Shown here: one piece after another, positions 358-62,056 of the stretch
Numbering within the stretch: position 1 is the first letter of the stretch
Layout: each line of letters begins with the position of its first letter
NCBI RefSeq assembly: GCF_004010195.1
Contig: NC_057721.1
Location: forward strand, 7,121,244 to 7,185,243
Source: Chiloscyllium plagiosum
Lineage: Eukaryota
Length of the DNA: 64,000 bases
Reading direction: 5' to 3'
Notes under the pieces: model-generated
Told to the model about the DNA's origin: nothing
Seen by the model: the letters and a program-made list of their open reading frames with translations, nothing else
The model's database searches: none
Position numbers and translations under genes: made by a program

Positions 358-459
358 TTGATTTGAAGATGCCAGTGTTGGACTAGGATATACAAAAGCA
401 CTAGCTTCCAAATAAACCTGTTGGACTATAACCTGGTGTTGTGTGATTTTTAACTTTGT
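358..459. mobile_element. Short fold-back Penelope-like insertion (family A) inside the Gypsy 3' LTR
   Basis: Inverted 3'-tail piece (GAAGATGCCAGTGTTGGACT) is joined to the forward family-A terminus (AATAAACCTGTTGGACTATAACCTGGTGTTGTGTGATTTTTAACTTTGT). Flanked by the near-duplication ACTCCTGYAT at 348-357 and 460-469. Confidence 0.7.
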
Positions 460-984
460 ACTCCTGTATATATTCTGTCAGCCAGGGCTCCCTGATTGGA
501 TCAGATAAACATTCCAAATCAGTGAATTCATATTCTACGACATTCACCTGGCTGACGTTGTTACAGTTACTACAACCCTCCCTGCCTGAGTCTGAGAACA
601 TAAGGCTGTTTTATTTTGTAGCTTTTCCTGCAGTGTTTTAGCACCAGAGCAGGTTGCCCCACCTCTGCCTCTGATGCAGGTTGCACGTAACACACAGTAG
701 CTCGCCTCTTGCATCCGGAGCATCTCGGAAGAAATTAATTTTCTCTTCAGGCAGTCGAGGAGCTGGGCACATTTTGCTCCTGTGCCGTTTGTGATTTTGC
801 AGCTTTTATATAGTTCACATGCTTGTTCAGGACCATTCCACTTCACCAACTTTATTCATCACCAGACCTAACCTCGAATTCACCATGCCTATTGCCCATG
901 CAGGGCCATTCCCATGTTTCCTAAACCAAACTGCTCACTGAAGTAATCTGTCTGTCTTGCTTAATGGAATCCTCGATTTTGCCT

Positions 985-1771
985 CCGGGCAAAGGCTGAG
1001 ACAACGGATGAATGGGCACCGCACAACAAACAACAGACAGGAGGGTTCCCTCCCAGTTGGGGAACACTTCAGTGGTCCAGGACATTCAGCCTCGGACCTT
1101 CAGGTGACCATCCTCCAAGGTGGACACTCCCACACTCACACATGCCCCCCCTCACAGACTTAAGACACTCTGCACTCACTACACATACACACATACACTT
1201 TCTCACACTCACAACCCCCAACCCAGACATACACACATATACACAGACAAAGACCCACATGCACACATATATTTTGTGGGGTGAATTTGTACTTGCAGGG
1301 TTACTTTGTACTTTGCTCAAAAACTGCATGCATTCATGTAGAACTCTGAGCTCAAAAACTGCATGAATTTATGTAAAACTCCGTTATCTCACTTTTTAGA
1401 TTAGAATCAATCTAAACATCATGGTATAGACAGAGAACACAAGGGGCCAAAATCTTCAACATATTGTCTAGCTATCACCATTGTTAACAGCTAACCTAAG
1501 AATGCAAATTTTTAATGAAAAAGGTTTTGTGATTTACACATGAAAGAAGTGAAACTATCACTTTATTCTAACAGATGAAAGGCTTAACAGACAATCAATT
1601 TTTCAATGTATAATTTCAGTTACATCACACTGTAAATTCTTGCTATAAATTCTATGCGTTAGGATTGAGCCCTCCACTACCACCTGATGATGGAGCGTCG
1701 CTCCGAAAGCTAGTATGCTTCCAATTAAACCTGTTGGACTATAACCTGGTGTTGTGTGATTTTTAACTTTG
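985..1771 (+). mobile_element. Penelope-like element 3' fragment (family A): GIY-YIG C-terminus, 3' UTR and hammerhead
   Basis: The ORF at 957-1163 reads GQRLRQRMNGHR..LPVGEHFSGPGHSASDLQVTILQG, typical of the PLE endonuclease end. A CA-rich segment follows. The terminus matches the copies at 358, 35403 and 41480. Confidence 0.8.
1681..1715 (+). ncRNA. Minimal type I hammerhead ribozyme motif (PLE family A)
   Basis: cac-CUGAUGA(1684-1690)-U-GGAGC-guc-GCUCC-GAAA-GCUA-gu: conserved core, 5-bp stem II, palindromic AGCU stem III and a short stem I. Confidence 0.75.
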
Positions 1772-3365
1772 TCTTCTTTAGGTAGACATAGGAGGTGTTT
1801 GTGCTCTGTTATTATTACAAAAGATATTGGTGGAACGTCCTGATTCCAATTTTGACTGACAAATCTTCTTTCTCCACCTCGGCGTATTTATGATCTATAT
1901 TAACCTAAGTCTTGGATGCATAGACTATTGTTCTTTCCTCTCCCCATTGGGCCACCTATGTGCTAATGTTATCCCAATGCCCTATGGGAGGCATTGCATG
2001 TCAATACCTGATCTTGCTTTGGATCACAGTGTGCCAACACCCCAGAGGAAGATAGCTGTTTCTTCACTTCCCTAAAGGTTATGACTTAGCTCAGGAACCA
2101 TTTCCAAAGCTGACCCTTTAAAGAGTTGGTGCACAGGTGCCAGGATGGAAGCCAGGTTATCTATGAACTTTCCATAACAGTTCACTAACCCAAGAAAAGT
2201 CCTCAGCTCCACTACTGATGTGAATAGTGGGGCATTTTGATCACCCTCACTTTATCTTCTAACGAGTGTAACCCAATCTTGTTGACTCTTAAGCCCAAGT
2301 AGGTCACTTGGAGTGCCTGGAACACACATCTTTCCCTTTCAAGGCATATGCTTGCCTGGGAGAAATATCTAAGGACTATGTCCAAGTTCTCTAAGTGCTC
2401 CTTATTGGTCTTCCCTGTGATTAGCATAGCACATAGGTAAATGTTCTCCATCATCCACTGAAAAATTGCACAGACTGAAGATATCCCAAATGACAGCCTC
2501 ATGTATTGGTACAAAACCTTATGGGTATTTACTACAACATACTTCTGAGAATCCTCATCTAACCACAATTGCAAGTATGCATGGCTCATGTCCAGCTTCA
2601 TGAAGGATAGCCTCCCTGCGAGGTTTATGTATAAATCCTCTAAGCAAAGGATCCAGCTGTGGGAAGTGTTTGTTTAAAATCCCCACAAAGGCGATTTCAC
2701 AATCAACACAAGTAGTGCTGACCATTCTGCAAACTGGACTGATTTGATGATTCCTTCACTTTCCAGCCTTCTGATTTCGACCTCTATTTTTGTGAGTAAG
2801 GCAAATGGCACTGGGTGGGTCTTGCAGAATTGTGAAATGGCTTCCTGGTCAACATGCAAAGTGGCATTGGCTCTTTTGATAGTCCCTCGACCAGCCTGAA
2901 AATCCTCTGGGTATTTAATTACTCAGGCAGCCATTTTCTATTCAAAAAATGATGAGCAAATCTAGGTAAATCTTACTCAGCCAATTTTGCCCAATTGAGC
3001 CTGGGCCTGAGCCTTTTACTACAATCAGTGGTAACAGAACCATCTGTTTCTCATAAGAGACAGGAGCCAAAGTTGTACGCTTAATCCGTGAAGGATCCTT
3101 GTTATAGCTTCTCATTCTAGCCAAGGTCTTGTGCAAATTTACAGGTTGGAATCCAAATCAAATTTTGTTAAAGACTTGTTCTGCGATCGCTGAAATGGCT
3201 GTATCAGTATGAACCTCCATTAAGGCAAAATGACCATTTAACCAGACATTTATTTTGTTTGCTTCTGATTTTTCTGAACAATTTAACTTTTTAAAAACAC
3301 ATATAGGTGGACTATCCACGATGTGCACTCTCCTGGATACTGGCCTATGTGTTCTCTTACTCAAT

Positions 3366-4594
3366 TTAGGTCATAAGACACAGGAGCAGAAATTAGGCCA
3401 TTCAGCCAATCGGGTCTGCTCTGCCATTCAATCAAGGCTGATAAGTTTCTCAATTCCATTCTCCTGATTTCTCCCCATAACCCTTGATCCCCTTCATACT
3501 CAAGAATCTATCTCTCTCATTCTTAAATATACTCAATGACCTGGCCTCCACAGCCTCCTGTGGTAATGAATTCCATAAGTTCACCACCCTCTGGCTGAAG
3601 AAGTTTCTCTTTATCTCCAATCTAAAAGGTCTTTCCTTGACTCTCAGGCTATGCCCTCAGGTCCTAGTCTCTCTTACCAATGGAAACAACTTCCCAACGT
3701 CTACTCTGTCCAAGTCATTCAGTATTCTATATGTTTCAATTAGATCACCCCTCATCCTTCTAAAACCATTGAGTATAAATCTAGAGTTCTAGATACGTTC
3801 CTCATAAGTTAAACTTTGCATTCCTGGGACCATTTTCACGAATCTCCTCTGAACATTCCCCAGGGCCAGGACATCCTTCCTGGGATATTCAGCCCAAAAC
3901 TGCGCTCAATACCCCAAATGTGATCTGACCAGAGTTTTATAGAACATCAGAAGTACAGCCCTGCGTTTATATTCAAGTCCTCTCAAAACAAATGCCATTA
4001 TTGCCTTCCTAACCACCGACTCAACTTGCAGGTTTACCTTGAGAGAATCTTGGACTAGAACACCCAAGTCTCTTTGTACTTCAGACTTCTGAATTTCCTC
4101 CCCATTTAGAATATAGTCTATGACTCTATTCTTACTACCAAAGCGCATGATCTCACATTTTCCCATGTAGTATTTCATCTGTCACTTCTTTGCCCACTCT
4201 CCTAACCTGTCCAAATTCTTCTGCAGTCTCCCCACTGCTTCAGTGCTGTCCCTCTACCTATCTTTGTATCATCTGCAAACATAACTGGAGTGCCCTCAGT
4301 TCCTTCATCCAAATCGTTAATGTATAAAGTGAAAAGTTGCGGTCCCAACACTGAGCATTGCGGAACACCATAGTCACCAGCTACCATCCTGAGAAAGACC
4401 CTTTTATCCACACTGTCTGCTTTCTGCCAGACAGCCAAACTTCTATCTATGCTAACACCTAGCCTCTGACACCATGGGCCGCTATCTAACTCAGTGGCCT
4501 CCCGTGTGGCACCTTGTCAAAGGCCTTCTTGAATTCCAGGTAGATAACATCCGTTGGCTCTCCTTGGTCTAACCTGCTCCTTACTTCCTCAAAG
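3366..4594 (-). mobile_element. CR1/HER1-type LINE 3' fragment nested in the Gypsy element
   Basis: RT remnants [27 protein letters not shown] and KCEIMRFG..QRDLGVLV..LVRSHLGY; CR1-type 3' tail near 3366. Confidence 0.85.
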
Positions 4595-6520: not shown

Positions 6521-7609
6521 CGTAATTGGTTTCCTTTTCAGAAATGACTAACACTTCGTTGTATTCTGACTTAAGGTGTATCCAAAATGCGGCGTCTACT
6601 AGTCGCTGGAATCGGTCATTGAAACTCTGATGATTGGTCTTGACCGTTTGCTAATCTTCCCTCGCAGCAATCACATGCAAGGGAGATTGTGTCCATCCCT
6701 GAGCACCCGAACGTGCCCCCATCTGGAATGGTATTGAGTGTTGCCAACCTTGTAATCGCCCCCTCTTTTTGTTCTGTCCTCTATAACTGCAGCTACTGCA
6801 TCCTATTTCTGGAGATGATAGATGCAAAATGTTCATTTGGTGCCACAAGAGATCTCCTTCTAGGCCTACCCTTCCTTTTTATTATCCTTTTGCTATTTAT
6901 ATTTGGGATTACAGAATTGAGGGAGTTTGCACAGTCTGTGTATACTGTTGTAGTGCATCGTAATGATTTAACCATTCATACTTTTTTATTTAGCAATGAA
7001 TAATTAAGAATGGGGAGGCAAGGAGGATAGAATTCATTGCCTAATTATGGCACTGTATATTCGGCAGTCAGCTCAAGAATGACCCTGGAGCTATGATGAA
7101 GTGATCTCAGTATGTTTCGTAGTAGTAGAATACTAATTGAAGAATGTCATAGATGCAAATAAACTTAAGGGTTGGGGAAGCTCCGTGCTTCCGAAGAAGA
7201 CCCATTTGGGACTTGAGCTATTAACTGTTTCTCTCTTCACCAATGTTAACAATGGACTTCTGCAACACTTCGTTTTCATTTCCAATCTCCACTGTATTTT
7301 GCTTTTATTATCGATACAAATATTGGAACACCAACATGCTATATCTTTCAGTTTAATTTTTCTTGACTTACAGGGGCAGTAGGGGAAACGAGTGCAGTTT
7401 GACCAAAAGAAAATTAATGTGCATGGAAACAGTGGGCTGATTGGCCTCCATCTGTGCTGCAAATCTTTCAACATAAATGAAAATTTGAAATTATTCCTGG
7501 GGCCTCTTTGTTCATACCATGCAACAACTTATTTTTTAAACAGTATTTGTAAGTTTGGAAAGTTTGAGAACTTGTATCAACATGACTTATTTTTAAACTT
7601 TTTAAATAG

Positions 7610-7806
7610 AGAAAGCTGGGAAGACTGTGCTAAGCGGGAAGTTCTGGAAGAGTCAGGGCTTCACATGAAGAATATGTGCTTTGCTGCAGTTGTCAATGGT
7701 ATCAAATTAGAAGAAAATTATCACTATGTCACAATTTTCATGCAAGGAGAAGTCAATACAGATTATGATTCAGAGCCAAAGAACCTAGAACCTCAGAAAA
7801 ATGAAG
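7610..7806 (+). CDS. NUDT15: NUDT15 exon 2 (rest of the Nudix box)
   Basis: [42 protein letters not shown]; TAG acceptor 7607-7609, GTAAAT donor at 7807; 197 bp. Confidence 0.97.
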
Positions 7807-8344
7807 GTAAATTTGTAATATTAAGTTTTGAGATTTTACAAGTAACTAAAGCAAGATTGTAAATCCACTCACAGCCTTGAACCATCTTATCTCCTCATTA
7901 TTATTTCTTTCATTTAAAAAAGAGAGAATACGACCTGCTTTATAATGAAATCATTCTCTGTTGTGAGGCACTGCCAAAGAACAATGATACGTTGTATTAA
8001 CTTCTGACTTCAAGATAAAAGTAATTCTCCAGAACACATCTTTACAGCAATTCTAGCCTCAGTATTAATTTTAAAGTTACTTATAACATTAGAGTGAGTC
8101 GCTGACATATTTCTAAAGCATGTCATAATTCAGAACAAGCAGAAAATTTTGCTGGAGTATTTTCTCCCATTGCATTAATCGTTCTGTGCAGAAATGCTTC
8201 ATTTGTAAACTCGCCAAAGGAAGCAGTTTAAATTAAACTGTGAAAATATTTTCATGTGTAGTAATGATATAAAGATATATTTATGTTGATTCTTCCCACA
8301 CTGATTTGCACATGAATCTGTCTGGAACTTGGAGTTGAGTTGAA

Positions 8345-15089: not shown

Positions 15090-16190
15090 AGAATAATAAA
15101 CAAGTACAGCATAGGAACAGGCCTTTCAGCCCACCATGTGTGTGCTGACCATTATGTTATTCGAAACAAATCCCACACGCCTGCACATGATCCATATTCC
15201 TTTATTTCCTGCTTGTTCTTATGCCTGTCTAAACACCTCAAACTTTGTTAACGTATCTTCTTGGTGGTGCTTCTATCACCTTCCCTGGCAGCGCGTTCCA
15301 AGTACCTACCACACTCTGCATTTAAAAACTTTACTCACACATCTCCTTTAGCTTTCCCCTCTCACCTTAAACCTACATCCCTTGTATTTGACAATTCCAC
15401 CTTGAGAAAAAGATACTTAACTATCTACCCTTTTCATGCCTTTAATTTTATATACATATATCTGGTAACCCCTCAGCCTCTGATGTTCTTGTGAAAGCAA
15501 TCCTTTTGTCCAACCTCTCCTGATAGCTAATACACTCCAATTCAGGCAGCATCCTGGCAAACATTCCCTCCAAAGCCTCCACATCCTTCCTATAGTATGG
15601 TTACCAGAATTACCTAACTAAAATCTTACATAGCTGCAATATGACTTGCCAACTTTTATACTCAAAACCCTAACCAATGAAAGCGAGCATGCCATACACC
15701 ACCTTTACCACCTATCTACTTGTGTTACCACTTTCGGGGAGCTATGGACTTACACCGCAACATTCCTCTATAAACTAATGCTTCTAAGGATCCTGCCATT
15801 ATTTACTGTACACTTTTGTATTTGACTTTCTAAAATGCATCACCTCACCCTTTTCTGGACATGTGGACCAGGAACTAAACTTTATCTGCCATTTCTCTGC
15901 TCAACTTTCCAATCGAACTTCATCCTGCTGTATCCTTTGATAACCTCCTCGTTATTCACAAGTCCACCAACTTTCGTATTGTCTGAAAACTTTAAAATCA
16001 GACCACCTAAGTTTTCATCCAAATCATTTATATTATATACATTACAAAAAGGTGTCAGCACAGATCCTTGTGGAATACCACTGGTCACAGATCTCCAATC
16101 AAACAACAACCTTCTGTCTTCTATGACCAAGCCAATTTTGTATCCAACTTCATGTGACTTAATCTTCTGGACTAGCGTACCATGCTGACT
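15090..16190 (-). mobile_element. CR1 LINE 3' fragment
   Basis: WRSVTSGIPQGSVL..INDLDENLGGLILKFSDNTKVGG in ORF 15882-16259; 3' tail near 15100. Confidence 0.8.
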
Positions 16191-20103: not shown

Positions 20104-20228
20104 GAGAAAGTGAGGACTGCAGATGCTGGAGATCAGAGCTGAAAATGTGTTGCTGGAAAAGCGCAGCAGGCCAGGCAGCATCCAAGGAACAGGAGAATCG
20201 ACATTTCGGGCATAAGCCCTTCTTCAGG
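20104..20228 (-). mobile_element. 125-bp PLE family B terminal insertion with hammerhead motif and 16-bp TSD
   Basis: ATACTACAATTGGAAG is repeated at 20088-20103 and 20229-20244. The minus strand reads auc-CUGAAGA-A-GGGC-UUAU-GCCC-GAAAU-GUC-gau and ends CTCACTTTCTC. Confidence 0.85.
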
Positions 20229-20879
20229 ATACTACAATTGGAAGCACAGTAACAAGTCTAATTGTTACTGTGAAGTAATCTTCCTGTTCCTGTCCCATTA
20301 CACAAAACATATTGATAGTAACTTGCCTTAAACAGAATAATTCATTAGAAATTAGAACGCTCTTGATTTTTTAAAAAATCATTTACATATATCATAATGA
20401 TGGTAAGAAATCACAAAGTACTTTCCACTTTCTCTGAGGAATCCAGCAACTCAGTACTTTAACAACAGATAATCAAAGAAATACACCATTATAGAACATG
20501 TCAGAATTGATTTGGTAAGTAAATCTGGGAAATCTACATTAATCTATTCTCAAGTTGGTAACTATTTAAGATCATCGTCAAAACAATTAAAGTAAATGTT
20601 TGCAAAATTATTTATTTTTCTAAGCACAGATGGATGAAGTGGATAGCAGACCAAAAACAGTCATGCAAGCAGAATCCACTATAGCTTTTAAAGGAATACA
20701 AGTGGATAAATATTTGAAAAACAAAACTTTGAAAAGGCTATGGAGAAATAGCAGCAAAATGGGAATAAATGGACAACCCATTCAGAGATTAGTGGTACAG
20801 GTAAAATGACCTCCTAGCTGCAAATGCATCTAGAATATCTCTTTATTAAAATAATGAGCAATAATATTTAAAATGGTAC

Positions 20880-29043: not shown

Positions 29044-29175
29044 TAATAAAACGTAAACTGCTGGAAAAGCTCAGCAGGTCTGGCACCATCTGTGGAGAGG
29101 AATCAGAGTTAACCTTTCCTCAGAACTTCTGGTTTTGTTTTTGATTTAAAACATCCTCAGTTCTTTTGGGTTTTA
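29044..29175. mobile_element. Short fold-back PLE family D insertion abutting the MED4 exon 2 donor
   Basis: TSD TCTTTCATTCCT at 29032-29043 and 29176-29187. Contains GCTGGAAAAGCTCAGCAGGTCTGGCA..ATCAGAGTTAAC; hammerhead stem II and GAAA are deleted. Confidence 0.8.
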
Positions 29176-32010: not shown

Positions 32011-32673
32011 AACAAAAACAGAAGTTGCTGGAAAAGCTCAGCAGGTCTGGCAGCATCTGTGAAGAGAAATCAGAGTTAACATTTCTGGTCGGGTGACCCT
32101 TCCTCAGAACTGACGGAGCTTGGAAAATGTTGATTTATATGCAGAAGATAGGGTGGGGGGGCTCAGCAGGTCTGGCAGCATCTGTGAAGAGAAATCAGAG
32201 TTAACATTTCTAATCCGATGACCCTTCCTCAGAACTGACGGTAGCTTGGAAAATGTTGATTTATATGCAGAAGATAGGGTGGGTAAAGGGCAAATGATAG
32301 GTGGGGCTAGAGCCCAAAGAGAGACAAGAATAGTTGGACAGACAAAGGAGTACATAACAATCTGGCTAGGAGGGTGAATAGCTGTTAATGGAAACTGTTA
32401 GTGGCTAATGATACATAGTATGAATGGCAGACTATGGGATGACAAGGCCTGATGTGTGAAGGAGGGGGCGAGGACATGGGAGAGGTCAGGCCCTGAATAT
32501 TGAACGTGATATTGAGTCCAGAGATCTGCAGGGTCCCTAAGCGGAAAATGAGATGTTGTTCTTCCAGCTTGTGCTCTGATTTCTCTGCACAGATGCTGAC
32601 AGACCTGCTGAGTTTTTCCAGCAACTTCTGTTTTTGATTCTGATTTACAGCATCCGCAGTTCTTTCGGTTTTT
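32011..32673. mobile_element. Fold-back PLE family D insertion with a tandemly duplicated hammerhead region
   Basis: The minus part encodes the GIY-YIG end KLEEQHLIFRLGTLQISGLN. Hammerhead cores CUGAGGA are at 32101-32107 and 32226-32232 (-). Forward terminal piece 32573-32673. Imperfect TSD ATTTATTAT(C/G)CC at 31998 and 32674. Confidence 0.8.
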
Positions 32674-33872: not shown

Positions 33873-33980
33873 GACCTTAATTCTGATTTCTCTCCACAGA
33901 TGCTACCATACTTGCTGAGCATTTCCAGAAATTTCTGTTTTTATTTCTGATTTACAGCATCCGCAGTTATTTCAGTTTTT
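33873..33980 (+). mobile_element. PLE family D 3' terminus
   Basis: TCTGATTTCTCTCCACAGATGCT..TTCCAG..GATTTACAGCATCCGCAGTT matches 32575-32670. Confidence 0.7.
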
Positions 33981-34639: not shown

Positions 34640-34762
34640 TTGACATCTAATGAAGGAACAGCTCTCCAAAAGCTTGTAATTTCAAATAAACCTGTTGGAC
34701 TATAACCTAATGTGACTTCTGACCTTGCCCACCACAGTCCAACAATGGCACGTCCACATCTA
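34640..34762 (+). mobile_element. Old PLE family A terminus with a decayed hammerhead
   Basis: CTAATGAAGGAACAGCTCTCCAAAAGCTT..AATAAACCTGTTGGACTATAACCT..CAGTCCAAC. Confidence 0.65.
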
Positions 34763-35142: not shown

Positions 35143-35300
35143 GGAGAAAGTGAGGGCTGCAGATGCTGGAGATCAGAGCTGAAAATGTGTTGCTGGAAAA
35201 GCGCAGCAGGTCAGGCAGCATCCAAGGAGCAGGAGAATCGATGTTTCGGGCATGAGCCCTTCTTCAGGAATGCGCTTTTCCAGCAACACGTTTTCAGCTC
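35143..35300. mobile_element. Fold-back PLE family B insertion with a 15-bp TSD
   Basis: TTGTGCAATTCATTG at 35128-35142 and 35301-35315. Hammerhead on - reads CUGAAGA-A-GGGC-UCAU-GCCC-GAAAC-AUC. Short inverted arm at ~35272-35300. Confidence 0.85.
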
Positions 35301-35402: not shown

Positions 35403-35820
35403 GGTCATGATTTGGAGGTGCCGGTGTTGAACTGAGGTGTACAAAGTTAAAAATCACTCAACAGCAGGTTATAGTCCAACAGGTTTAATTTGAAGCACCA
35501 GCTTTCGGAGCGCTGCTCCTTCATCAAGTAGTTGTGGAGTATACAGTTATAAGACACAATTTATAGCAAAGGTTTACTGTGTGATGTAACTGAAATTATA
35601 CATTGAAAAATACCTTGATTGTTTGTTAAGTCTCTCATCTGTTAGAATGACCATGTTAGATTCAATTCTTTCATATGTAAATCACAAAACATTTTTTTAA
35701 AAAATTACATTCTCAGGTGAACTTTAACAATTGATGTCAGCCCAGATAATGTGTTGAAGGTGTTAGCCCCCTGTGTGCTGCTGTCTGTGCCATAATGTTT
35801 AGACTGATTCTCATCTAAAT
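35403..35820 (-). mobile_element. PLE family A 3' fragment
   Basis: Reverse complement matches ~1395-1771; the hammerhead near 35495-35530 has C3 changed to U (UUGAUGA-A-GGAGCAGCGCUCC-GAAAGCUG). Confidence 0.8.
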
Positions 35821-36050: not shown

Positions 36051-36261
36051 GAGAAAGTGAGGTCTGCAGATGCTGGAGATCAGAGCCGGAGATGTGTTGC
36101 TGGAAAAGCGCAGCAGGTCAGGCAGCATCCAGGGAACAGGAGAATCGACGTTTCGGGCATAAGCCCTCATTCCTGAAGAAGGGCTTATGCCCGAAACGTC
36201 GATTCTCCTGTTCCCTGGATGCTGCCTGACCTGCTGCGCTTTTCCAGCAACACATCTCCGG
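36051..36261. mobile_element. Young fold-back PLE family B insertion with perfect 84-bp arms and a 15-bp TSD
   Basis: CTATTGTATCACAAG at 36036-36050 and 36262-36276; arms 36084-36167 and 36180-36263 are exact reverse complements. Confidence 0.92.
36169..36204 (+). ncRNA. Minimal type I hammerhead ribozyme motif with intact core (family B)
   Basis: auuc-CUGAAGA(36173-36179)-A-GGGC-UUAU-GCCC-GAAAC-GUC(36198-36200)-gauu, with palindromic ACGU stem III and a GUC cleavage triplet. Confidence 0.82.
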
Positions 36262-36559
36262 CTATTGTATCACAAGATGTATAAAGATATGTGCTCCAGG
36301 TTGAGAGAGGAATTGCAGCTGACCACTGTGCTGTTGGTGTCTTTCTCTCCCCGGAGCTCCGATATTTCCTTGTACAATAAACTCTGTCATTGAACCCTAA
36401 CTCAGATGCCGAGACTAGTGATTTTCCCTATAACAGCAGCATAAATATTAAATTCCTTCTAAACAATTAAATTATACTACAGGTAGGAAGACTGTCTGGA
36501 TTCATTCTCATCAACCTAGTGGTAGCCAGAGAAACACTTATTATGACTTATCTTCCTGC

Positions 36560-37090: not shown

Positions 37091-37262
37091 TAGCTTTCTA
37101 CATTTCATGTCAATAGCCTCCTGTAAATCTAGCGTCATCTTTTCTCTTCTAATCAACCTGTTAAGAGACATTATTAGACATCTACAGAGCTTGTGGGACT
37201 TTAAACAAAACACTGGAGAGTACAGTGGTTCAGACAGTATCCATGGAGAGAAAGCAAGCTAA

Positions 37263-41479: not shown

Positions 41480-41646
41480 GAGTTAGAGGTGCTGGTGTTG
41501 GACTGAGGTGTACAAAGTTAATCACACAACACTAATTTATAGTCCAGTAGGTTTATTTGGAAGCACTAGCTTTCGGAGCACTACTCCTCATCAGCACTAC
41601 TCCACAACTATCTGATGAGGAGCAATGCTTTGAAAGCTAGTGCTTC
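41480..41646. mobile_element. Fold-back PLE family A insertion with back-to-back hammerhead cores and a 12-bp TSD
   Basis: CAAGATATTTAG at 41468-41479 and 41647-41658. CUGAUGA cores at 41588-41594 (-) and 41612-41618 (+) are each followed by stem II and GAAAGCUA. Confidence 0.85.
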
Positions 41647-42136
41647 CAAGATATTTAGAGAGGCCATTGTAATACAAGGTGTGAATACCTCGCCACCATT
41701 CCAGCAATACAGGAATTCACATCTATCTGATAGCTTGACTTTAATAGCCTGTCTTTTCACAATTTAAGCTAGATTTAAAAACTGATTTCCAAAATAAAAA
41801 TGGTTTTGTATGTATTTGGAATGCAATGGTGATCAAAGGTTTGTCAAATGATTTTTAAAAATGGCTTTTTGAATAAGGAGAGGTGGAAGCTTTATGGACG
41901 GAATCCCAGAATGAGAGATTTAGGTGTTCTTCTCGCTGATAGTCACTGGGTTTGCTGTACAGTTTGGAGTGTTTCCCTTTAGAATACTACTTCCAAGACA
42001 CTACACACAATCACTGTGAAATCTTGGTACACGAGGTTTTAAGAAATATATTAAAGGAGGGTAGAGGGATGAAGAGTTTGGAGGATGGAATGACAGTGCT
42101 TATGACCTTGACACAGCCACAAAAAAGCAAGAGATT

Positions 42137-42890
42137 TAAGGTTGTAAATTTGCTCGCTGAGCTTGTAGGTTTGTTCTTGGATGTTTTGTCACCATGCTAG
42201 GTAACATTATCAGTGAGCCTCTGGTGAAGTGCTGGTGTTCTGCCCTGCTTTCTATTAATGTGGCTTGGTCTGTTAAGGTGAGTGATGTCATTTCTGGTTC
42301 TTTTTCTCAGAGGTTGTTAAATGGAGAAACCAGCACAGCAGATGCTGAAGATTAGTGTTGAGAGAGTGGTGCTGGGAAAGCATAATAGGTCAGGCAGCAT
42401 TCAAGGAGCAGGAGAATCAACATCTCGAGCATAAGTCCTTCATCAGGAGTCCAAATTGATGTGATTATTGATGGAGTTCTGGTTTGAATGCTAGGCCTCT
42501 CAGAATTCCAGAGTATGTCTCACATGTAACACACAGGCGAAGGAGGATGCCACTTTGACTGGGATAACACATCCATTCTAGGACAGGCTAAACAGAGACA
42601 CACATGGAAATTCCTAGAGGCCTGGCATTCAAACCGGAACTCCATCGATAAACTCACTGATTTACCCATTTACCAACCACTGAGGAAAAGAACTGGAAAT
42701 GATATCACCCACCTTAACAGACCAAGCCACATAAGTAGAAAGTGGGACAGAACACCAGAGCTTCAAAGGCGGCTCACCTGATGATGTTACCTAGCATGGT
42801 GACAAAATGTCCGAGAACAAACCTACCAGCTCAGCGAGCAAACTTATAACATGAACCTCAACTTGAGCTACAAATCTTCTGAAAAATCAC
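42137..42890. mobile_element. Fold-back PLE family C insertion with a nested family B copy (~42323-42449)
   Basis: The + part encodes HFDWDNTSILGQAKQRHTWKFLEAWHSNRNSID (GIY-YIG end). Arms are ~42140-42510 vs ~42605-42850. Decayed hammerhead CUGAUGA-U-GUUACC..GGUGAC-AAAAUGUC at 42778. TSD AAGCAAG(A/T)GATT at 42125 and 42891. Confidence 0.8.
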
Positions 42891-46264: not shown

Positions 46265-46550
46265 TTTAGATTAGATTCCCTACAGTGTGGTAACAGGTCC
46301 TTCGGTCCAACCAGTCCACACCGACCCTCCGAAGAGTAACCCACCCAGACCCATTTCCCTCTGACTAATGCATCTAACACTACGGGCAACTTAGCATGGC
46401 CAATTCACCTAACCTGCACATTTTTGGACTGTGGAAGGAAACCGGAGCACCCGGAGGAAACCCACGCACATACAGGGAGAACGTGCAAACTCCACACAGG
46501 CAGTCACCTGAGGCTGGGATCCTGGTGCTGTGAGGCTGCAGTGCTAGCTA
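46265..46550 (-). mobile_element. HE1-like SINE
   Basis: Tail and core present; head partly deleted. Confidence 0.85.
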
Positions 46551-46740
46551 CCCATCGAACCCAAAAGTCTGTCCACTGGCTGACTGCAGCCCGTGCCTCC
46601 CCCCCCCAGAGGTCAACCTGGTGTCGGGTAAAAATAGATTTTGAAAAGCAAACTTGCTTTTTTGTTAGGCCTCTTTTTAGACATGTTAACTGGGTGCTTG
46701 TCAGAAGACAATCATGACCTCAAATTGCTGAAAATGATTC

Positions 46741-46890
46741 AATAAATCAGAAGTTGCTGGAAATGCACAGCAGATTTGGAACCATCTGTGAAGAGGAATC
46801 AAAAGTTAACATTTTGGGTCTGGTGACCCTTGCTCAGAGGACCCAAAGAATGAACTTTGTTATATAGCATCTGCAGTTCTTTCAGTTTTT
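46741..46890. mobile_element. Decayed fold-back PLE family D insertion
   Basis: CAGAAGTTGCTGGAAA..AGTTAACATTTTGGGTCTGGTGACCCTTGCTCAG, then forward tail AGCATCTGCAGTTCTTTCAGTTTTT. Confidence 0.7.
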
Positions 46891-47482: not shown

Positions 47483-47584
47483 GTAGGAGCGTGCCAAATA
47501 AACTGATTTTAAATGTAAGCTGAAATAAAAGTACTGTAAGATGCAGTGATGACCGTATCCATGTATTAGTTACATTTACAATAG

Positions 47585-49810
47585 TGTAGAATCCCTGGAG
47601 TGTGGAAATAGGCCCTTCGGCCCAACAAGTCCACACCAACCCTCTGAAGAGTAACCCACCCAGACCCATGCCCCAACTCTATTATTTTACACATGCACCT
47701 GACTAATGCACCTAATCCACATATCCCTGAACACTATGGGCAATTTAGCATGGACGGTTCACCTGACCTGCACATCTTTGGATTGTGGGAGGAAACGGGA
47801 ACACCTGGAGGAAACCAACGCAGACACTGGGAGAATGTGCAAACTCCATGCAGACAGTCAGAGATGTACAACATAGAAACAGACCCTTTGGTCGGTATTG
47901 ATGAGTTGGACCAGATATCCCATCCTAAACTAGTCTCATTTGCCACCGTTTGGCCCATATCCTTCACAACCCTTCCTAATCATATACCCATCCAGATGCC
48001 TTTTAAATGCTGCAATTGTACTGCCATTTCCTCTGGTATTTCATACACTACCCTCTGCGTGAAAAAGTTGCCCCTTAGGGCCCTTTTGTATCTTTCCCCT
48101 TTGACCCTAAACCCTCGCCCTCTAGTTCTGGGCTCCCCACTCTCACCTCAGGGAAAAGATCTTGTCTATTTATCTTACCCATGCCCCTCATGATTTATAA
48201 ACCTCTCAACCTCTGACTCTCCAGGGAAAACAGCCTCCAACCCTGGCAACATCCTTGGTAAATTTTTTCTGAGCCCTTTCAAGTTTCACAACATCCTTCC
48301 GATAGGAGGGAGACTAGAATTGCATGCAATATTCCAAAAGTGGCCTGACCAATGTCCTATACAGTTGCAACATGGCCTCCCAGCTCCTTCACGCAATGCT
48401 CTGATGAATAAAGGAAAGCATACCAAATACTTTCATCACTATCCTATCTGCCTGTGACTCCAGTTTCAAGGAGCTATGAACCTGCACTCCAAGGTCTCTT
48501 TGTTCAGCAATACTCCCTAGGACCTTACCATTAAGTGTATAAGTCCTGCTAAGATTTGTCTTCCCAAAATGCAGCAACTCGCTTTAGCTAAATTAAACTT
48601 CATCTGCCACTCCTCAGCCCATTAGCCCATCTGATCAAGATGCTGTTGTAACCTGAAGTAACCTCCTTTGCTGTCCACTACACCTCCAATTTTGGTGTAA
48701 TCTGCAAACTTATTAACTGTACCTCTGCTCACATCCAAATCACTTATATAAATGATGAAAAGTAGTGAACCCAGCACCAAACCTTGTGGCACTCCACTGG
48801 TTTCAGGCCTCCAGTCTGAAAAACAACCCTTCCACCACCACCCTCTGTCTTCTACCTTTGAGCCAGTTGTGTATCCAAATGGCTAGTTCTCCCTGTATTC
48901 TGACAGATCTAATCTTGCTCCCAGCGGGAACCTTGTCGAATGCCTTACTGAATTCTATATAGATCATGTCTATCGCTTTGCCCTCATGAATTCTTTGTTA
49001 CTTCAAAAAAAAATCAGTCAAATTCGTGAGACATGATTTCCCATGCGCAAAGCCATGTTGACTATCCTTAATCAGTCCTTGCCTTTCCAAATACATGTAA
49101 ATTCTGTCCCTCAGGATTCCCTCCAACAACTTGTCCACCACTGACGTCAGGCTCACTGGTCTATACTTCCCTGGCTTATACTTACCACCTTTCTTAAATA
49201 GTGGCACCACGTTAGTCAACTTCTAGCCTCTGGCACCTCACCTGTGACTATTGATGATACAAATATCTCAGCAAACAATCATTTCCTTAGCTTCCCACTA
49301 GGTTCTAGGGTATACCTGATCAGGTCCTGGGAATTTATTCACTTTTTTGTGTTTGAAGACATCCAGCATCACCACCTCTGTAATATAGACATTTTTCAAG
49401 ATAGATCTAAATCCCTACATTCTACAGAAGATATCCATGTCCTTCTCCACAGTAAACACTGATGCAAATTACTCGTTTAGTATCTTCCCCACGTCCTGCG
49501 GCTCCACACAAAGGCTGCCTTGCTGATCTGTGAGGGGTCTAGTTCTCTCCCTAGTTACCCTTTTGTCCTTAATGTATTTGTAAAAACCCTTTGGATTCTC
49601 TTTAACCCTATTTGCCAAAACTATGTCATGTCCCCTTTTTGCCCTCCTGATTTCCCAGTTAAGTATACTCCGACTGCCTTTGTACTCTTCTAAGGATTCA
49701 CCTTATCTATCCTGTCTATACCTGACATGTGCTTTCGCCCAAGGTTGGAATCAAACCCATGTCCCTGGTGCTGTGAGGCAGCAGTGCTAACCACTAAGCT
49801 ACTGTGCTGC
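47585..49810 (-). mobile_element. HE1-like SINE split by a ~1.87-kb CR1 LINE (~47860-49730)
   Basis: SINE 3' part is 47585-47860 and the 5' head is 49735-49810. The interposed CR1 has NVVPLFKKG..KYRPVSLTS..QHGFAHGKSCLTNL and QRDLGVQVH. Confidence 0.88.
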
Positions 49811-52046: not shown

Positions 52047-52238
52047 GTCAAAAAGTGTGGTGCTGGAAAAGCACAGTCGGTTAGGCAGCATCATTCAAGG
52101 AGCAGGAGAGTGGGATTCCTGATGAAGAGCTTATGCTCAAAACGTTGACTCTCCTGCTCCTCAGATGCTATCTGACTGGCTGTGCTTTTCCAGCACCACA
52201 CTTTTTGACTCCAGCATCTGCAATCCTCACTTTCTCCT
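52047..52238. mobile_element. Fold-back PLE family B insertion (older subfamily)
   Basis: Arms GTCAAAAAGTGTGGTGCTGGAAAAGCACAG and CTGTGCTTTTCCAGCACCACACTTTTTGAC. Core CUGAUGA(52119)-A-GAGC-UUAU-GCUC-AAAAC has G12 lost. Ends CTCACTTTCTCC. Confidence 0.8.
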
Positions 52239-52526
52239 GCATCTTCTAAGTAAAGATAGATGTGAAGCACTCATTTAATACTCTACCAATGTCCTCTAAC
52301 TTCATGTACAGATTCTCTCTCTAGTCCTGATTGAGCCCAGCTCTTTCTCTGGTAATTCTGTTTCCCTGATATATTTGTAGAACATCTTGGGATTCTTCCT
52401 AATCTTGCTTGACAGATTTTGTTTTCCCCATGCTTCCTCTTTGTTCTTCCAAATACTTTGATTTGCCCCTTGAAGTTTTTATATTGCTTTAGGTCCTGAA
52501 TGTTCCTAAACAGGTAGATGGTTTTT

Positions 52527-52793
52527 TTAGATTAGATTCCCCACAGTGTGGAAACGGGTCCTTTGGCCCAACCAGTCCACACTGACCCTCTGAAGAGTAA
52601 CCCACCCAGACCCATTTCCCTTTGACTAATGCACCTAACACTATGAGCAATTTAGCATGGCCAATTCACCTGACGTGCACATCTTTGGACTGTGGGAGGA
52701 AACCGGAGCACCCGGAGGGAACTCATGCAGGCACTGGGAGAATGTGCAAACTCCAACAGTCACCCGAGGCTGGGATCGAACCTCGGACCCTGA
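52527..52793 (-). mobile_element. HE1-like SINE (5'-truncated)
   Basis: Tail, core and B-box GGTTCGATCCC. Confidence 0.85.
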
Positions 52794-54722: not shown

Positions 54723-56800
54723 GAGTGTGGTGCTGGAAACGCACAACATGTCAGGCAGCATCCGAGGAGCAGCAGAATCGACGTTTCAGCATAAGCCCTT
54801 CATCAGGAATGAGGCTTGTGGGCCGGGGGGCTGAGAGATAAATGGGAGCAGGAAGGGGCTGGGGGGGAAGGTATCTGAGAATGCAGTAAGTGGATGAAGG
54901 TGGGGGTGAAGGTGATAGGTCAGAGAGGAGGGTGGAGTGGATAGATGGAAAAGGTGATGGACAGGTCAAGAGGGTGGTGCCGAGTTGGAGGCTTGGCACT
55001 GGGATAAGTTGGGGACAGGGTAAATGAGGAAACTAGTGAAATCCATGTTAATCCTGTGTGGTTGCAGGGTCCCAAGTTGGAAGATGAGGCATTCTTCTTC
55101 CAGGTGTCAGGTGGTTAAGGTTTGGCAATGGAGGAGGCCCTGGACCTGCATGACTTTGGTGGAGTGGGAGGGGGAGTTGAAGTGTTCAGCCACGAGGCGG
55201 TGAAGTTGGTTGGTACGGGTGTCCCGGAGATGTCCTCTGAAACGATCCGCAAGTTGGCGCCCTGCCTCCCTGATATAGAGGAGACCACATTGGGTGCAAT
55301 AGATACAATAGATGACATGGTGGAGGTACAGGTAAATATCTGTTGGATGTGGAAAGATCTTTTGGGGTTTTGGATGGGGGGGGGGGGGGGGGAAGGTGTG
55401 GGTGCAGGTTTTGCACTTCCTGCAGTTGCAGTAGCAGTAGCAGGGGTAGGTGCCAGGAATGGGATGAGGGCTGGTGGGGAAGCAGATCTGACTAGAAGTC
55501 GCAGAGGGAATTGTCTCATTGGAATGCTGACAGGTGGGGAAGGAAATATATCCCTAGTGGTGGGGTCTGTTTGTAGGTGGTGGAATTTGGGGAGAATGAT
55601 GTAATGTATACGGAAGTTGGTGGGGTGGAAGGTGAGGACTGGGGGTTCTGTCCTTGTTGCATTGGGAGGGGAAATCGTGGCCGAAGAAGGAGGCCATCTG
55701 GGATTTTCTGTGGTGGAATTGGTCATCCTGGGAACAGATCCGGCAGAGGAATTGGAAATGAGGGATGGAGTTTTTACAGACAGTATGGGAGGAAGTGTAG
55801 TCCAGGTAGCTGTGGGAGTCGGTTGGTTTTTTTGTAGATGTCTGTGGTTAATCAGTTGCAGATGATGGAGAGGTCTAGGGAGGGGAGGAAATGTTTGAGA
55901 TGATCCAGATGAATTTGAGGTCGGGGTGAAAGGTGTTAGTGAAGTTGATGAACTGCGCAACCTTCTCATGGGAGCCTGAGGTGGCGCTGATACAGTCGTC
56001 TGTGTACCGGTGAAAAATGTGGGGGGTGCTGGTGTAGTTGTGGAAGATGGACTGTTTCACATACCCGACAAAGAGACAAGCATAGCTAGGGCCCATGCAG
56101 GTGCCCATGGCACCCCCTTTTGTTTGGAGGAAGTGGGAGGATCGGAAGGAGAAGTTGTTGAGGTTGAGGACCAGTTCAGCCAGATGGATGAGGATGTCAG
56201 TGGAAGGTTACTGGTTGGGATGGCATGAGAGGAAGAAACGGAGGCTTGGAGACATTTGTCATGGAGGATAAATGAGTACAGGGATTGGATGTCCATGATG
56301 AGGAAAAGGCGTAGGGGGCCAGGGAAACGGAAGTCTTGGACGAGGTGAAGGGCGTGGGTGATGTCATCCGCCTTCGCCAAACCCTAACCACCTGACGTCT
56401 GGATGAAGAACCCCATGTCTTCTGCCTTGGGACCCTGCAACCACATGGGATTCATGTGGATTTCACCAGATTCCTCATTTCCCGTCCCCACCTTATCCCA
56501 GTCCAAAGCCTCCAACTCAGCACCGCCCCTCTTGATCTGTCCATCGTCTTTCTCATCTATCCGCTCCACCCTCCTCTCTGACCTATCACATTCTCCCTCA
56601 CCTTCATGTATTTATTGCATTCTCCACTACAATCTCCCACCCCCCACCCATTTATCTCTCAGCCCCCAGCCCACAAGCCTCATTCCTGATGAAGGGCTTA
56701 TGCCCGAAACGTCAATTATCCTGCTCCTTGGATGTTGCCTGATGTGCTGTGCTTTTCCAGCGCGCCACTCTTGACTCTGATCTGTAGTTCACTTTCTCCT
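54723..56800. mobile_element. 2.1-kb Penelope-like (Neptune-type) insertion with inverted structure and 18-bp TSD (family B)
   Basis: CATAAATGGTAAGCTGTT at 54705-54722 and 56801-56818. The minus segment (~54723-56376) has RT motifs MDIQSLY, MGTCMGPSYACLF and RYTDD, a CRKCKTC linker and GIY-YIG VIYCIYCTQCGLLYI. The forward 3' copy is ~56377-56800. Confidence 0.92.
56682..56717 (+). ncRNA. Minimal hammerhead motif, sense to ITM2B intron 2
   Basis: CUGAUGA(56686-56692)-A-GGGC-UUAU-GCCC-GAAAC-GUC(56711-56713); the first stem I pair is mismatched (C-A). Confidence 0.72.
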
Positions 56801-59194: not shown

Positions 59195-61565
59195 ATTTGA
59201 TTTATTGTCCTATGTATCTTAAGTACAATCAAAATTGCAAGCAGATCATACATACAAGGAAATAGATCATGGGGTGTTTGGATAGAGTAAGGCATACAAG
59301 GTTACGGATACACAAGAAGTGTGCAAAGGCAAGATCGGCATTAGATTTGAAATTGGAAGTCCATTCACCAGTCTAATAACAGCAGGGAGAATTTGTATTT
59401 GAATCCGTAGGTACATATGTTCAAGCTTCTGTATCTGCTGTCGGAAAGAAAAGGTTGGAAGAGATTATAACCAGAGTGAGAGGGGTCTTTGAAGTCTTTC
59501 TGCAGCAACGGGAAGTATAGATGGAGGTCATGGAAGCGAGTTTATGAAGTTGAAGGAGTGTACTGTACCTTTTGAGAATGAAAGCTGGCAAGCACTTGTC
59601 ATGTGACTGACTCGCAGTCAGTGTGCTGGAAAATTGAAAAAATGTAACATTTGACTGTAACCTAGATACCTCAGTTGTTTTCACAGCCATTCGAATTTAA
59701 CCAGTTTACATTATGCCCGAAGATACTAAAACCCCATCGAATTTGGATTTTACTGTTTTTGACAACATTGAACTAATGAGATGATCCGATGTTTGGGGTA
59801 TAAAGAAAGCAAGCATTTTGGACAGTTGGCCAGAAAGAGCACCAACTGTCATTGAAAGACTGCTATTCACCACATTCTCTGTCAAAGGTACCTTTTTTAC
59901 ATGAAACATCTTGGCAGCAGAAGACCAAAGATGACCCAGGGAGATCTACAAACCGAGGAAGATTGACATCAGAGATGATGGCCGCTATCTAGTTTTGAAA
60001 ATTAAGTTGCTGTAAATTTAATAGGGGCTTTATTGGATCAGTTTTCAGAGTGGGAGGTAGAGAACAAATCTTTGAGGAGGGAGGGTTAGAGTTGTAAATA
60101 AATGTTGTGTTTTCACTTTGAGTTAAATAATTGTTTTTTTTTGTTAAATAGTGGAATTTGGGTAGTTCTGTCACTCATACTTTAACGGATTATGAGGCGA
60201 GGTGAGCTTTTGTGTGTTTGGTTTAATTAGCAGAAGGGTTTACCACTGTTGTAACAGGATGTTGGCTTTCATGATTGTCTGGGCTGCCTACATACTTTCC
60301 TGTAGTTCCGGTCCTGGGCAGAGCAGTTGGCTGTACCAAGCTGTTAAGCACCCAGTTAGAATGCTTTCTAAAGTGCATCTGTAAAGGTTGCTGAGGGTTC
60401 TTGTGGACGTACAGAATTTCCTAAGCCTCCTGAAGAAGAAGAGGCATTTTTGTACTGCCTTGACTGTCACATCTGCTTTGGAGGTCAGGGGCAGATTGTT
60501 GATAATCAATTATTGTCACTCCAAGGAACTTGACAGTCTCTGCCTTCTCCACTGATGTACGTAAGGGCATATCCTCCATCTTTCTTCCTGAAGTTAATGA
60601 TCAGTTCTTTTGTTTGGTGGACGTTGAGAGAGAGTGTGTTTTAATTTTGCCATGACACCAAGCACTTTTATCTCCTTCCTGTATTTTGACTCATTATTGT
60701 TTGATATCCGGCTTACAATGGTGGTATCGACAGCAAACTTGTAGTTGGGATTTGTGTGAAATTTGGCCCCACAGTCATGTGTGCGGGGAGAACAGTAGGG
60801 TGCTGAAATCCTTGTGGGGCACCAGTGTTGAGTATTTTTGTGGAAGGTGTGCTATTGTCTGTCTTCACTGGTTGCAGTCTGTGGGCCCGAGAGCTGAAGA
60901 TCCAGTTGCAGAGGTCGGAGCTGAGACCTAAGTCTTGGAGTTTTGAGATGGTTGGGATTATAGTGTTGAAGGCAGAGCTGTAGTCTATAATAGGACTCTG
61001 TGGGTATTCTTATTGTCCAGGTATTCTAGGGCTGAGTATAGAGGTAGGGAAATGGCATCTTCTATGGACCTGCTTTGCTGGTAGGCAGATTGCAAGGGTC
61101 AAGGTAGGCCTGGAGGCTAGAGTTGATGTGAGTTACGACTAACGTGTGGAAGCACTTCATGATTATGAAGGTTAAAACCATCAGGCGGTAGTCATTGAGG
61201 CACATTACATGTGTTTTCTTCAGTATTGGGATGATGGTGTCCTTTTTGAAGCAGATGGGGACTTCAGATTGTAGCAAGGAGAGGTTAAAGATGTTAGTGA
61301 ATACTTCTGTCAGCTGGTCCACACAGGATCTGAATGCGTGGCTGGGGACTCCATCTGGGCCAGTTGCTTTCCTCAGGCTTACTACCGAGAAGGCTGATCT
61401 GATGTCTGCAGGAATGACGGAGGGAGCAGGTATATCTGGGGCTGTCAGGGCAGGTGACATCACACTATTGGCGTTCTACTCTAACTGAGCATAAAAAGCA
61501 TTGAACGTATCAGGGAGGGCTATGTTTTTGTCTGCTATTTTGTTCTGCTTCATTTGTATTCCATT
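59195..61565 (-). mobile_element. Rex1/Babar-type LINE fragment interrupted by a solo LTR
   Basis: RKATGPDGVP..DQLTEVFTNIFNLSLLQSEVPICFKK..IIPILKK..CLNDYR..IMKCF and KAVQKCLFFFRRLRKF..LYRCTLESILTGCLTAWY; 3' end near 59195-59530. Confidence 0.8.
59540..60256 (+). mobile_element. Probable solo LTR
   Basis: Starts TTATGAAG..TGTACTGTACCTTT, has TATAAA at ~59800 and AATAAA at ~60096, ends GGGTTTACC..GTAACA. Similar ends to 62057-62709. Confidence 0.6.
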
Positions 61566-61608
61566 ATGTTCTCTAAATGGACTATAAATTGACATCCTAA
61601 TTGGACTC

Positions 61609-61826
61609 TTGGCTTAATAATGTGTTGCTGGAAAAGCGCAGCAGGTCAGGCAGCATCAAAGGAACAGGAGAATCGACGTTTCGGGCATAAGCCCTTCTTC
61701 AGGAATGGCTTTCTTTCAGGCTTATGCCCGAAACGTCGATTCTCCTGTTCCTTTGCTGCCTGACCTCCTGCACTTTTCCAGCAACACATTTTTAAGCTCT
61801 GATCTCCAGCATCTGCACTTTCTCCT
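61609..61826. mobile_element. Fold-back PLE family B insertion with a 15-bp TSD and an intact hammerhead on the minus strand
   Basis: ATCCTAATTGGACTC at 61594-61608 and 61827-61841. The minus strand reads auuc-CUGAAGA(61696-61702)-A-GGGC-UUAU-GCCC-GAAAC-GUC-gauu. Confidence 0.88.
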
Positions 61827-62056
61827 ATCCTAATTGGACTCCCAATGGAATTGGGAATTTGTGTACACATGAACACAAAGCTCTGTTGTGTGATGAAATT
61901 TTAATTTATCATTCATGTAGATTTGGTTTAATTTTTAAATGCGGTTTTTCTTACTGATTTATTCACAAATTACTAGACGATTCCAATTAAATATGCCAGT
62001 GTAGATAATTGATATATAATTTCTTTCAAGACTGTCTTCAGGGATCTTTACAGTAG

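Follow-up and report, generated by a model that had tools for sequence, protein, structure and literature searches.

Minimal hammerhead ribozymes have been described from the pseudo-long terminal repeats (pLTRs) of metazoan Penelope-like elements (PLEs), and massive numbers of solo copies in vertebrate genomes have already been published (Cervera and De la Pena 2014, PMC4209133; this and the other sources are cited from the parts of them that were accessible). In vitro work on an anole PLE has attributed two 3' ends to internal start sites of the reverse transcriptase (RT), matching an uncut template (PMC11167929). The part played by the hammerhead in the PLE cycle is regarded as an open question (PMC8557442, PMC11167929). 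Here, we report on the hammerhead-bearing PLE insertions in a 64,000-nt stretch of the genome of the shark Chiloscyllium plagiosum (NC_057721.1, 7121244-7185243; genome of 3.56 Gb), referred to below as the window, and on their relatives in a sample of the same genome.

With a probability of about 80%, the sites in the window are end-repeat copies of several PLE families that carry the known minimal type I hammerhead and decay neutrally, most of them being stubs that were likely left where RT ran off the RNA at its putative start. The hammerhead motif itself is already described; what is added here is the poly(A) site of one family (family A) and a class of stubs that start at the likely RNA start.

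Hammerhead families, abundance and element class

A sequence-only reading of the window had named 16 hammerhead-like cores, intact or decayed. A core or its decayed copy was present at every one of these sites, and all of them lie inside PLE end repeats. However, positions on the minus strand had been placed about 6 nt too low, and C3 of the core is located there at 20227, 29123, 32107, 32232, 35267, 35526, 41594, 46838, 54806 and 61702. Six of the 16 sites (1684+, 36173+, 41612+, 56686+, 41594- and 61702-) pass a strict descriptor consisting of the core, a helix II of at least 4 bp, a palindromic helix III and NUH, compared with a mean of 0.04 and a maximum of 1 strict core in 100 shuffles of the window. 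Fully family-typical cores were found only at 36173+ and 61702- (2/16). Among the other strict cores, helix I is broken at its third pair at 1684+ and at its first pair at 56686+, and is missing at 41594-.

The stem II types GGAGC/GCUCC, GGGC/GCCC, GUUACC/GGUGAC and GGGUC/GACCC and the helix III palindromes AGCU and ACGU were recovered as the sequence-only reading had described them. Likewise, CUGANGA, the extra base and GAAA are kept, with NUH, in the majority motifs of 10 subfamilies. The extra base between A9 and G10.1 is part of all subfamily majorities and absent from two copies in the window, G10.1 is present in all majorities, and position 11.1 is U in the majorities of families D and F (a CpG site). 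Helix III (15.2/16.2) is palindromic without a loop, with GC in family A and CG in families B to F. These features identify the motif as the minimal type I hammerhead of PLEs, the class of Cervera and De la Pena, as had been proposed.

The proposed covariation between families is real. Helix I reads CAC/GUG in family A, AUUC/GAAU in Bg, UCA/UGA in C, AGUU/AACU in D, AGCU/AGCU in E and AGUC/GACU in F, so that 18 of 18 pairs are formed over six lineages; Bg was taken to represent family B, in which Bc and Bt are commoner. This score was equalled by 1 of 720 permutations, a figure that is not a strict probability because the lineages are related. B and D have their downstream tail in common and are therefore related lineages. 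Families E and F were found outside the window. Family E (L109, L154, L183, L189, L195, L269-L276) has the core UUGACAA, with a U3-A8 pair instead of C3-G8, and a self-complementary helix I; no link to an upstream open reading frame (ORF) was established at these loci. Family F (L078, L081, L085, L111, L153) combines helix II GGGU/ACCC with the B/D tail. An Rfam scan at E of at most 5 returned no hammerhead family, only miRNA-type hairpins under gathering scores, and the motif is therefore poorly modelled by Rfam. In thermodynamic folds, the minimum free energy structure of the monomer contained helices I and II in Bg and D only, and cofolds did not give the double-hammerhead fold; the family E example had a mutated helix II. 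Judged from sequence, the fold appears to be selected only in master elements.

Abundance was estimated from a genome sample of 140 fixed-coordinate 10-kb pieces on 46 large contigs (1,337,326 non-N bases; small unplaced contigs were left out). The sample held 401 end-copies (B, 205; A, 83; D, 71; C, 21; E, 11; F, 10), or 1 per 3.3 kb, which extrapolates to about 1.0 million genome-wide. Strict cores numbered 73 (1 per 18 kb), with 1 each in the reversed and complemented controls, corresponding to about 185,000 in the genome (bootstrap, 139,000 to 236,000). The density of about one core per 4 kb that had been put forward thus holds for end-copies (1 per 3 to 4 kb genome-wide) but not for strict cores. 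Very large copy numbers are borne out by the sample and by exact-pattern counts in the genome (A, 2,154; B, 17,044; D, 189; C, 137; E, 805), for which reversed patterns gave 0.

As the sequence-only reading had suggested, every family of the window (A to D) is tied to an RT or GIY-YIG endonuclease remnant that precedes its motif in the same orientation. Such remnants were found at 984-1106 (+) for family A (C-terminal part of GIY-YIG; tblastn E 3.5e-4), at 55035-56365 and 56405-56488 for B, at 42554-42697 for C and at 32499-32564 for D, those of A and D being short (E 3e-4 to 5e-4). In the longest family B copy, the protein remnant (55035-56365; E 2e-97) preserves the order RT, Cys-rich linker, GIY-YIG, and an inverted arm adjoins the copy. 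A 526-amino-acid family B frame (L027) carries RVT_1, its homologues carry RVT_1 and GIY-YIG, and the hammerhead lies downstream, which is the layout of an endonuclease-bearing PLE. The copies also display 5' truncation, an inverted 5' copy and an optional tail of 30 to 40 nt, as expected of such elements. The nearest named homologues of the long family B frame are from Chiloscyllium punctatum (at most 89% identity over half of the query), Rhincodon, Stegostoma and rays. A CX2-5CxxC linker between RT and endonuclease, given as the mark of the Neptune clade in PMC8557442, is present in family B (L030; window 55400-55450), and family C was labelled Poseidon-like by eye from the absence of this linker in L112. 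A Pfam search named only 2 of 12 proteins, and a PDB search of the proteins gave no match. Long open frames were rejected, as they consist mostly of N gaps.

Sequence shared past the tail, which would be the 5' part of the element, was found at 0/30 and 0/45 family A tails and at 0/122 family B tails. At its end, the long family A tail carries CAAATCATGAC(TAC), which may open the reading frame of the element; the 30 loci concerned (L239-L268) have no shared continuation. Database proteins of rays labelled as host genes (a kinase-domain protein isoform and a nicotinamide riboside kinase isoform; P0008, P0093) match the PLE frame, which suggests that PLE pieces may have been annotated as exons.

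Copy end points and the poly(A) site of family A

Positions are counted here from C3 of the core, with H17 at +27 to +33. The 3' ends of copies form two classes 30 to 35 nt apart (A, about +83 and +115 to +120; B, +89 and +123; C, +75 and +109). Nearly all lie beyond H17, and the copied RNA was therefore uncut at that ribozyme. Reverse transcription would have started in the tail, 55 to 95 nt behind the uncut motif.

The 5' ends are also concentrated. Among 302 core-reaching copies of the sample, 100 extend into the untranslated region (UTR) of their family, 100 form head-to-head junctions, 99 meet unrelated flanks and 3 abut gaps. For families A and B, 87 of 225 copies with at least 85% identity (39%) begin at -10 to +4, and the 5'-end hazard per 5 nt is 0.14 to 0.29 in this pile, compared with 0.00 to 0.13 (mostly at most 0.05) outside -15 to +4. 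An A/T-rich, TATA-like box precedes the pile by about 30 nt in every family. Family A has TATAAA at -38/-40 and its pile at -12 to -7, whereas family D has a CATAAA-type box near -34 and a pile at -5 to -2. In family E, TATAAATA at -35 to -37 is followed by very sharp 5' ends at about -4 (17 of 21 arms begin at -7 to -1 by eye), and families B and F share a weak TTTAT near -35 and a pile at -5/-4. The family C box is located at -47/-48 (-53 in one subfamily), which predicts stub ends near -18. Twelve family C ends within 45 nt, from scoring that covered 64 of 71 copies, were at -19 (three), -14 (two), -12, -31 (two), -39, -45, -5 and -4, and 7 of 18 truncated rows begin at -22 to -17 by eye. 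As the family C stub ends are shifted along with the box, to -19 to -12, a transcription start is favored over a fixed distance from the core, although these numbers are small.

The 5' pile is likely to mark the start of transcription at the front edge of the ribozyme, where RT would run off the 5' end of the RNA and leave a stub. In families B, D, E and F, the first base of the RNA would then be the first base of helix I. Letters such as TCAGT, TCATT and TTAGTT resemble initiator motifs. In the supplementary alignment of PMC4209133, letters of this kind stand right ahead of helix I in many animal minimal hammerheads. An RNA start at helix I may be general among them.

A possible footprint of cleavage was seen at +25 to +29, where 10 of 201 family A and B copies at risk end, compared with 2 and 7 in the adjoining bins. 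About 20 of 100 family B junctions have G1.1 as their first base when judged by eye, and in about 12 of these there is microhomology with helix I or a single duplication that recurs. The cut site shows a weak excess of 5' ends that is inseparable here from microhomology and therefore not decisive. In subfamily Bt, a junction with a short tail piece ahead of G1.1 recurs (about 9 of 100); it may be a microhomology event that happened repeatedly or a tail-only variant that was amplified.

The family A copy near the start of the window has its TATAAA box (1644..1649, +), a putative promoter element, 40 nt ahead of C3. The hammerhead (1681..1715, +; C3 1684) has helix II GGAGC/GCUCC and helix III AGCU, with the cut predicted after A1712. 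ATTAAA at 1724-1729, the poly(A) addition sites and a GU/U-rich stretch follow (1724..1744, +), and then the short tail with the 3' end of the element, where RT probably started (1745..1772, +). Reads from one poly(A) single-cell run made with 3'-tag chemistry (X21; organism B, perhaps another shark), about 2% of the run, were placed on 1380-1800. Loose A-runs followed position 1741 (+57) in 334 reads and position 1744 (+60) in 408. The sense depth of 1255 ahead of the site dropped to 557 and then to 312 across it; the site is located 12 to 15 nt behind ATTAAA, ahead of the GU/U-rich stretch and upstream of the fixed 3' ends. A genomic A-run at this position was found in 0 of 139 tails. ATTAAA and AATAAA are the two commonest poly(A) signals, and 56 of 71 family A copies carry one of them (30 and 26, respectively). 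A second family A subfamily has the same poly(A) end, and Bg has AATAAA at +76.

About 200,000 family A tails are expected genome-wide (83 in 1.34 Mb), most of them with AWTAAA; they could end host transcripts prematurely and confuse the annotation of shark genes. A family A head-to-head palindrome at 41486..41649 (C3 41594- and 41612+) lies in an intron of what we take to be an ITM2B-like gene. Its gene-sense plus arm stops right before AWTAAA, while the antisense arm retains it; this single case fits a purging of sense poly(A) sites.

Decay of copies, rival explanations and a candidate copying route

One core per 4 kb had been taken to imply a very large shark ribozyme repertoire. A working repertoire is not supported by the data. 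In 191 core-spanning copies, 5.2% of non-CpG core bases and 6.3% of other bases differ from the subfamily majority (P = 0.058; non-core sites with more than 25% mismatch were dropped as subfamily polymorphisms). After base matching with G12 omitted, 92 core changes were observed versus 106.6 expected, and no single base was significant; the inserted core decays at the rate of its base-matched flanks. A minimal motif needs a second copy for helix III; within 10 kb on the same strand, a compatible one was present for only 2 of 63 near-complete copies, at a distance of 2.5 kb (partners were counted within one 10-kb piece, so that pairs spanning piece edges are missed). Furthermore, about two thirds of core-bearing copies are cut off at the 5' edge of the ribozyme, and the depth of sense RNA reads does not drop across the scissile bond. 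Neutral decay, rare partners and unchanged depth together reduce the "repertoire" to a count of motifs rather than of working ribozymes. The inserted copies are fossils that decay neutrally.

Three other explanations were weighed against run-off at an RNA start. A role of solo or neighboring hammerheads in cutting host pre-mRNAs, maintained by selection, would agree with the roughly 160,000 genome copies that have the core, helices II and III and at least three of four helix I pairs, with the existence of poly(A) RNAs spanning the motif and with core decay a little below that of the flanks. However, this difference is not significant once bases are matched, and neither the partner counts nor the read depth at the scissile bond fit such a role. 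In published assays, monomers did not cleave and dimers cleaved little (PMC4209133), and 8 of 9 Xenopus dimers remained uncleaved (bioRxiv 10.64898/2026.07.22.740005). We therefore regard a host ribozyme repertoire as very improbable. It is also unlikely, though somewhat less so, that the short copies form an independent non-autonomous family of the short interspersed element (SINE) or retrozyme type with masters of its own. The very sharp 5' ends of family E stubs would suit such a family, as would the tandem retrozymes reported from one Chondrichthyes genome (bioRxiv 10.64898/2026.07.22.740005), but the 5' ends of A, B and D scatter across about 15 nt, with a continuous transition to long copies that share their subfamily letters. 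Tandem units, the arrangement of non-LTR retrozymes, are nearly absent; the one tandem pair in the window (32107/32232) is decayed.

A more serious doubt concerns the 5' pile itself, which might instead arise from self-priming of an antisense template, from twin priming with joins where the hammerhead is self-complementary, or from resolution by the endonuclease at a set distance from the site bound by the protein. One third of the core-reaching copies (100/302) are head-to-head junctions centered near the core, helix I or II microhomology is frequent at the junctions, and head-to-head palindromes have been explained by self-priming on antisense template in PMC3846280. Against this stand the 99 of 302 copies that have the same pile next to unrelated flanks and the family C pile, which moves with the TATA box instead of being fixed to the core (small n, partly by eye). 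Priming or resolution as the source of the pile is possible but, on balance, doubtful.

Several observations weigh against run-off stubs of hammerhead-bearing end repeats. In Bc and Bt, the two commonest subfamilies of family B, helix I has U opposite U at its third pair, which lowers the covariation count to 17/18 when they are used, and AWTAAA is absent from their tails in the region examined. A canonical TATA box is absent from B and F. Family C provides few stubs, and of its 12 ends within 45 nt, 5 lie elsewhere (-4, -5, -39, -45 and the second -31). The poly(A) evidence comes from one run of one sample and concerns family A only, the source organism B may be another species, and X22, a second run of the same sample, placed no reads on the region. 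The reads, from a 3'-tag library that cannot test the start, showed no read-start pile, and an adapter-type loose end was absent from the 6 of 37 rows examined. Core decay in A and B was under that of the flanks before base matching (3.6 to 4.3% versus 5.9 to 6.2%), so that a weak constraint on the core is conceivable. Finally, no full-length two-repeat element was found among the loci examined, where many long copies contain assembly gaps.

Retroviral and LTR-retrotransposon ends follow the order U3-R-U5: a promoter, a short repeated region that ends in the poly(A) site, and an RT start just downstream, with minus-strand strong-stop DNA produced by run-off. Given a TATA-like box about 30 nt ahead of the putative start, the hammerhead, AWUAAA with its poly(A) site in family A, and two putative RT starts, the PLE end repeat is U3-R-U5-like. 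A unit RNA might then begin at the front edge of a hammerhead, end shortly after the following one and carry exactly two copies, the pair that a minimal hammerhead needs; selection would act on the motif only in master elements, where it would work as a dimer of two end repeats in one transcript, probably with protein help, and cut after H17. Because no full-length master was found, this unit RNA is offered as a model. The 3' end of the family A unit RNA lacks an RT start, and RT would therefore have to start within the 5' tail, where run-off at the cap would leave the stubs, or else copy a read-through RNA. Long copies would require a template with the tail at its 3' end, which could be read-through RNA, a jump between repeats or a circle formed by cleavage and ligation; the circle route was already proposed in PMC4209133. 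Taken further, PLEs might copy by an LTR-like route, in which a unit RNA from helix I to the poly(A) site behind the second hammerhead gives strong-stop-like cDNA from the 5' tail, and the hammerhead dimer joins the RNA ends, by strand transfer or by cleavage and circularization, so that synthesis reaches the ORF. The million stubs would be failed strong-stop products and the family A stubs portable poly(A) sites. We advance this route tentatively, as a conjecture that may well be wrong.

Insertions in the window and relation to known elements

Outside the strict set, the majority of the ten remaining cores have lost a core base or helix II; over all cores that are not family-typical, the damage affects a core base, a helix or the 5' strand of helix I. 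Family A is further represented by a coreless head-to-head stub of an inverted long tail and a sense tail-only piece (358..459; 404-459 +), by a decayed stub (34644..34708, +) and by a copy with upstream UTR and long tail (35409..35819, -), the core of which is dead (C3>U and A17>G at 35526). Family B stubs were found at 20104..20229 (-; beginning at the core edge, with a long tail, 11 core nt and a changed helix III base at 20227), at 35144..35272 (-; helix III mismatch at 35267) and, decayed and nested inside the family C insertion, at 42338..42448 (-). Head-to-head arrangements of this family include the palindrome at 36051..36263, the plus arm of which (C3 36173) is intact and family-typical, the pair at 52051..52236, with G12>A in the plus-arm core (52119), and the pair at 61616..61826, with an intact, family-typical minus arm (C3 61702). 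The longest family B copy (54723..56365, -) consists of a broken RT, the linker, the GIY-YIG remnant, UTR, a core with damaged helix II (54806) and the tail; its 5'-truncated inverted arm (56367..56783, +) has an intact core at 56686 in which G1.1>A breaks helix I.

The family C insertion comprises an inverted arm (42139..42324, -) with a decayed core near 42216 and a copy (42529..42853, +) with the C-terminal endonuclease remnant, UTR and a core with G12>A (42778). Family D is present as a stub lacking helix II and GAAA (29048..29128, -; C3 29123), as a copy with the C-terminal endonuclease remnant and a local 125-nt duplication, helix II being broken in both cores (32011..32564, -), as two tail-only pieces (32573..32660, +, inverted relative to that copy, and 33877..33972, +) and as a decayed stub (46744..46838, -) with G12>A at 46838. 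The decayed cores near 34647+, 42216- and 42446-, as well as several tail-only pieces, were absent from the earlier list of sites.

NUDT15-like exons lie at 7383-7862 (weak NUDIX match), and MED4- and ITM2B-like exons are presumably also in the window (first exons translated; gene names from motifs). A 300-nt repeat, which we take to resemble the tRNA-derived HE1 SINE of sharks, occurs in at least eight copies (21215-21533, 25985-26301, 37255-37570, 43287-43552, 45079-45403, 46261-46580, 47576-47934 and 52522-52757). RT remnants of the long interspersed element type, CR1/L2-like by eye, were noted at 37676-39117, 3474-4262, 15882-16259 and 61062-61475, and a small broken Gypsy-like RT fragment, also by eye, at 2212-2673 (-).

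As a ribozyme catalogue, the shark copies are ordinary: they add members, mostly fossils, to a described class. Their value is mechanistic, as around a million end-copies yield sharp end-point statistics, which together with a used poly(A) site make the role of the PLE hammerhead directly testable (RNA starting at helix I, polyadenylation within the repeat and RT starting further on). A search of literature listings, with subscription journals, Repbase and Dfam outside its scope, brought up no paper that treats the hammerheads of shark PLEs, a poly(A) site in them or a strong-stop model, and supplements of the 2026 preprint may name shark families. No shark row is included in the alignment or the searched supplements of PMC4209133.

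The shark motifs agree with the minimal hammerheads of PMC4209133 in CUGANGA with an extra base, G10.1-C11.1, a palindromic 15.2/16.2 without a loop, a helix I of 3 to 4 bp, many solo copies in consensus families and opposite-strand pairs, and the U3-A8 core of family E is the variant reported there for Schistosoma. In contrast to that set, helix II is short in the shark (4 to 6 bp), strict cores number about 185,000 versus about 4,000 in coelacanth and about 9,000 in Xenopus (the descriptors differ), and the end-point map and poly(A) site are found only here, as far as the accessible parts of that paper go. Non-LTR retrozymes (bioRxiv 10.64898/2026.07.22.740005) likewise have type I hammerheads derived from PLE pLTRs, with one chondrichthyan included, but form tandem units, whereas shark copies are solo or head-to-head. 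Likeness to U3-R-U5 is an analogy and not a membership, since the shark enzymes are PLE RT and GIY-YIG; a tRNA primer site, integrase and LTR ends were neither sought nor seen.

Parallels are also offered by Penelope of Drosophila virilis (PMC2377424) and the Adineta PLEs (PMC3846280), in which a transcription start or a putative TATA box with initiator lies inside the pLTR and which share the optional 30- to 40-nt tail and the head-to-head palindromes. However, Penelope is described with a TATA-less promoter and a 46-nt exon plus intron ahead of the ribozyme (PMC2377424), while the shark start would be at helix I or a few bases before it. With the Anolis Poseidon element PAc (Frangieh et al. 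2024, PMC11167929), the shark families share a hammerhead located at the edge of the pLTR, a pair of fixed 3' ends separated by about 30 to 35 nt behind the uncut ribozyme, and an uncleaved RNA template. For PAc, a multi-copy read-through RNA was proposed; in contrast, the ribozyme and the putative RT starts of shark family A are separated by a poly(A) site that is in use, and, unlike in the available account of PAc, a large class of shark stubs ends at the likely start of transcription.

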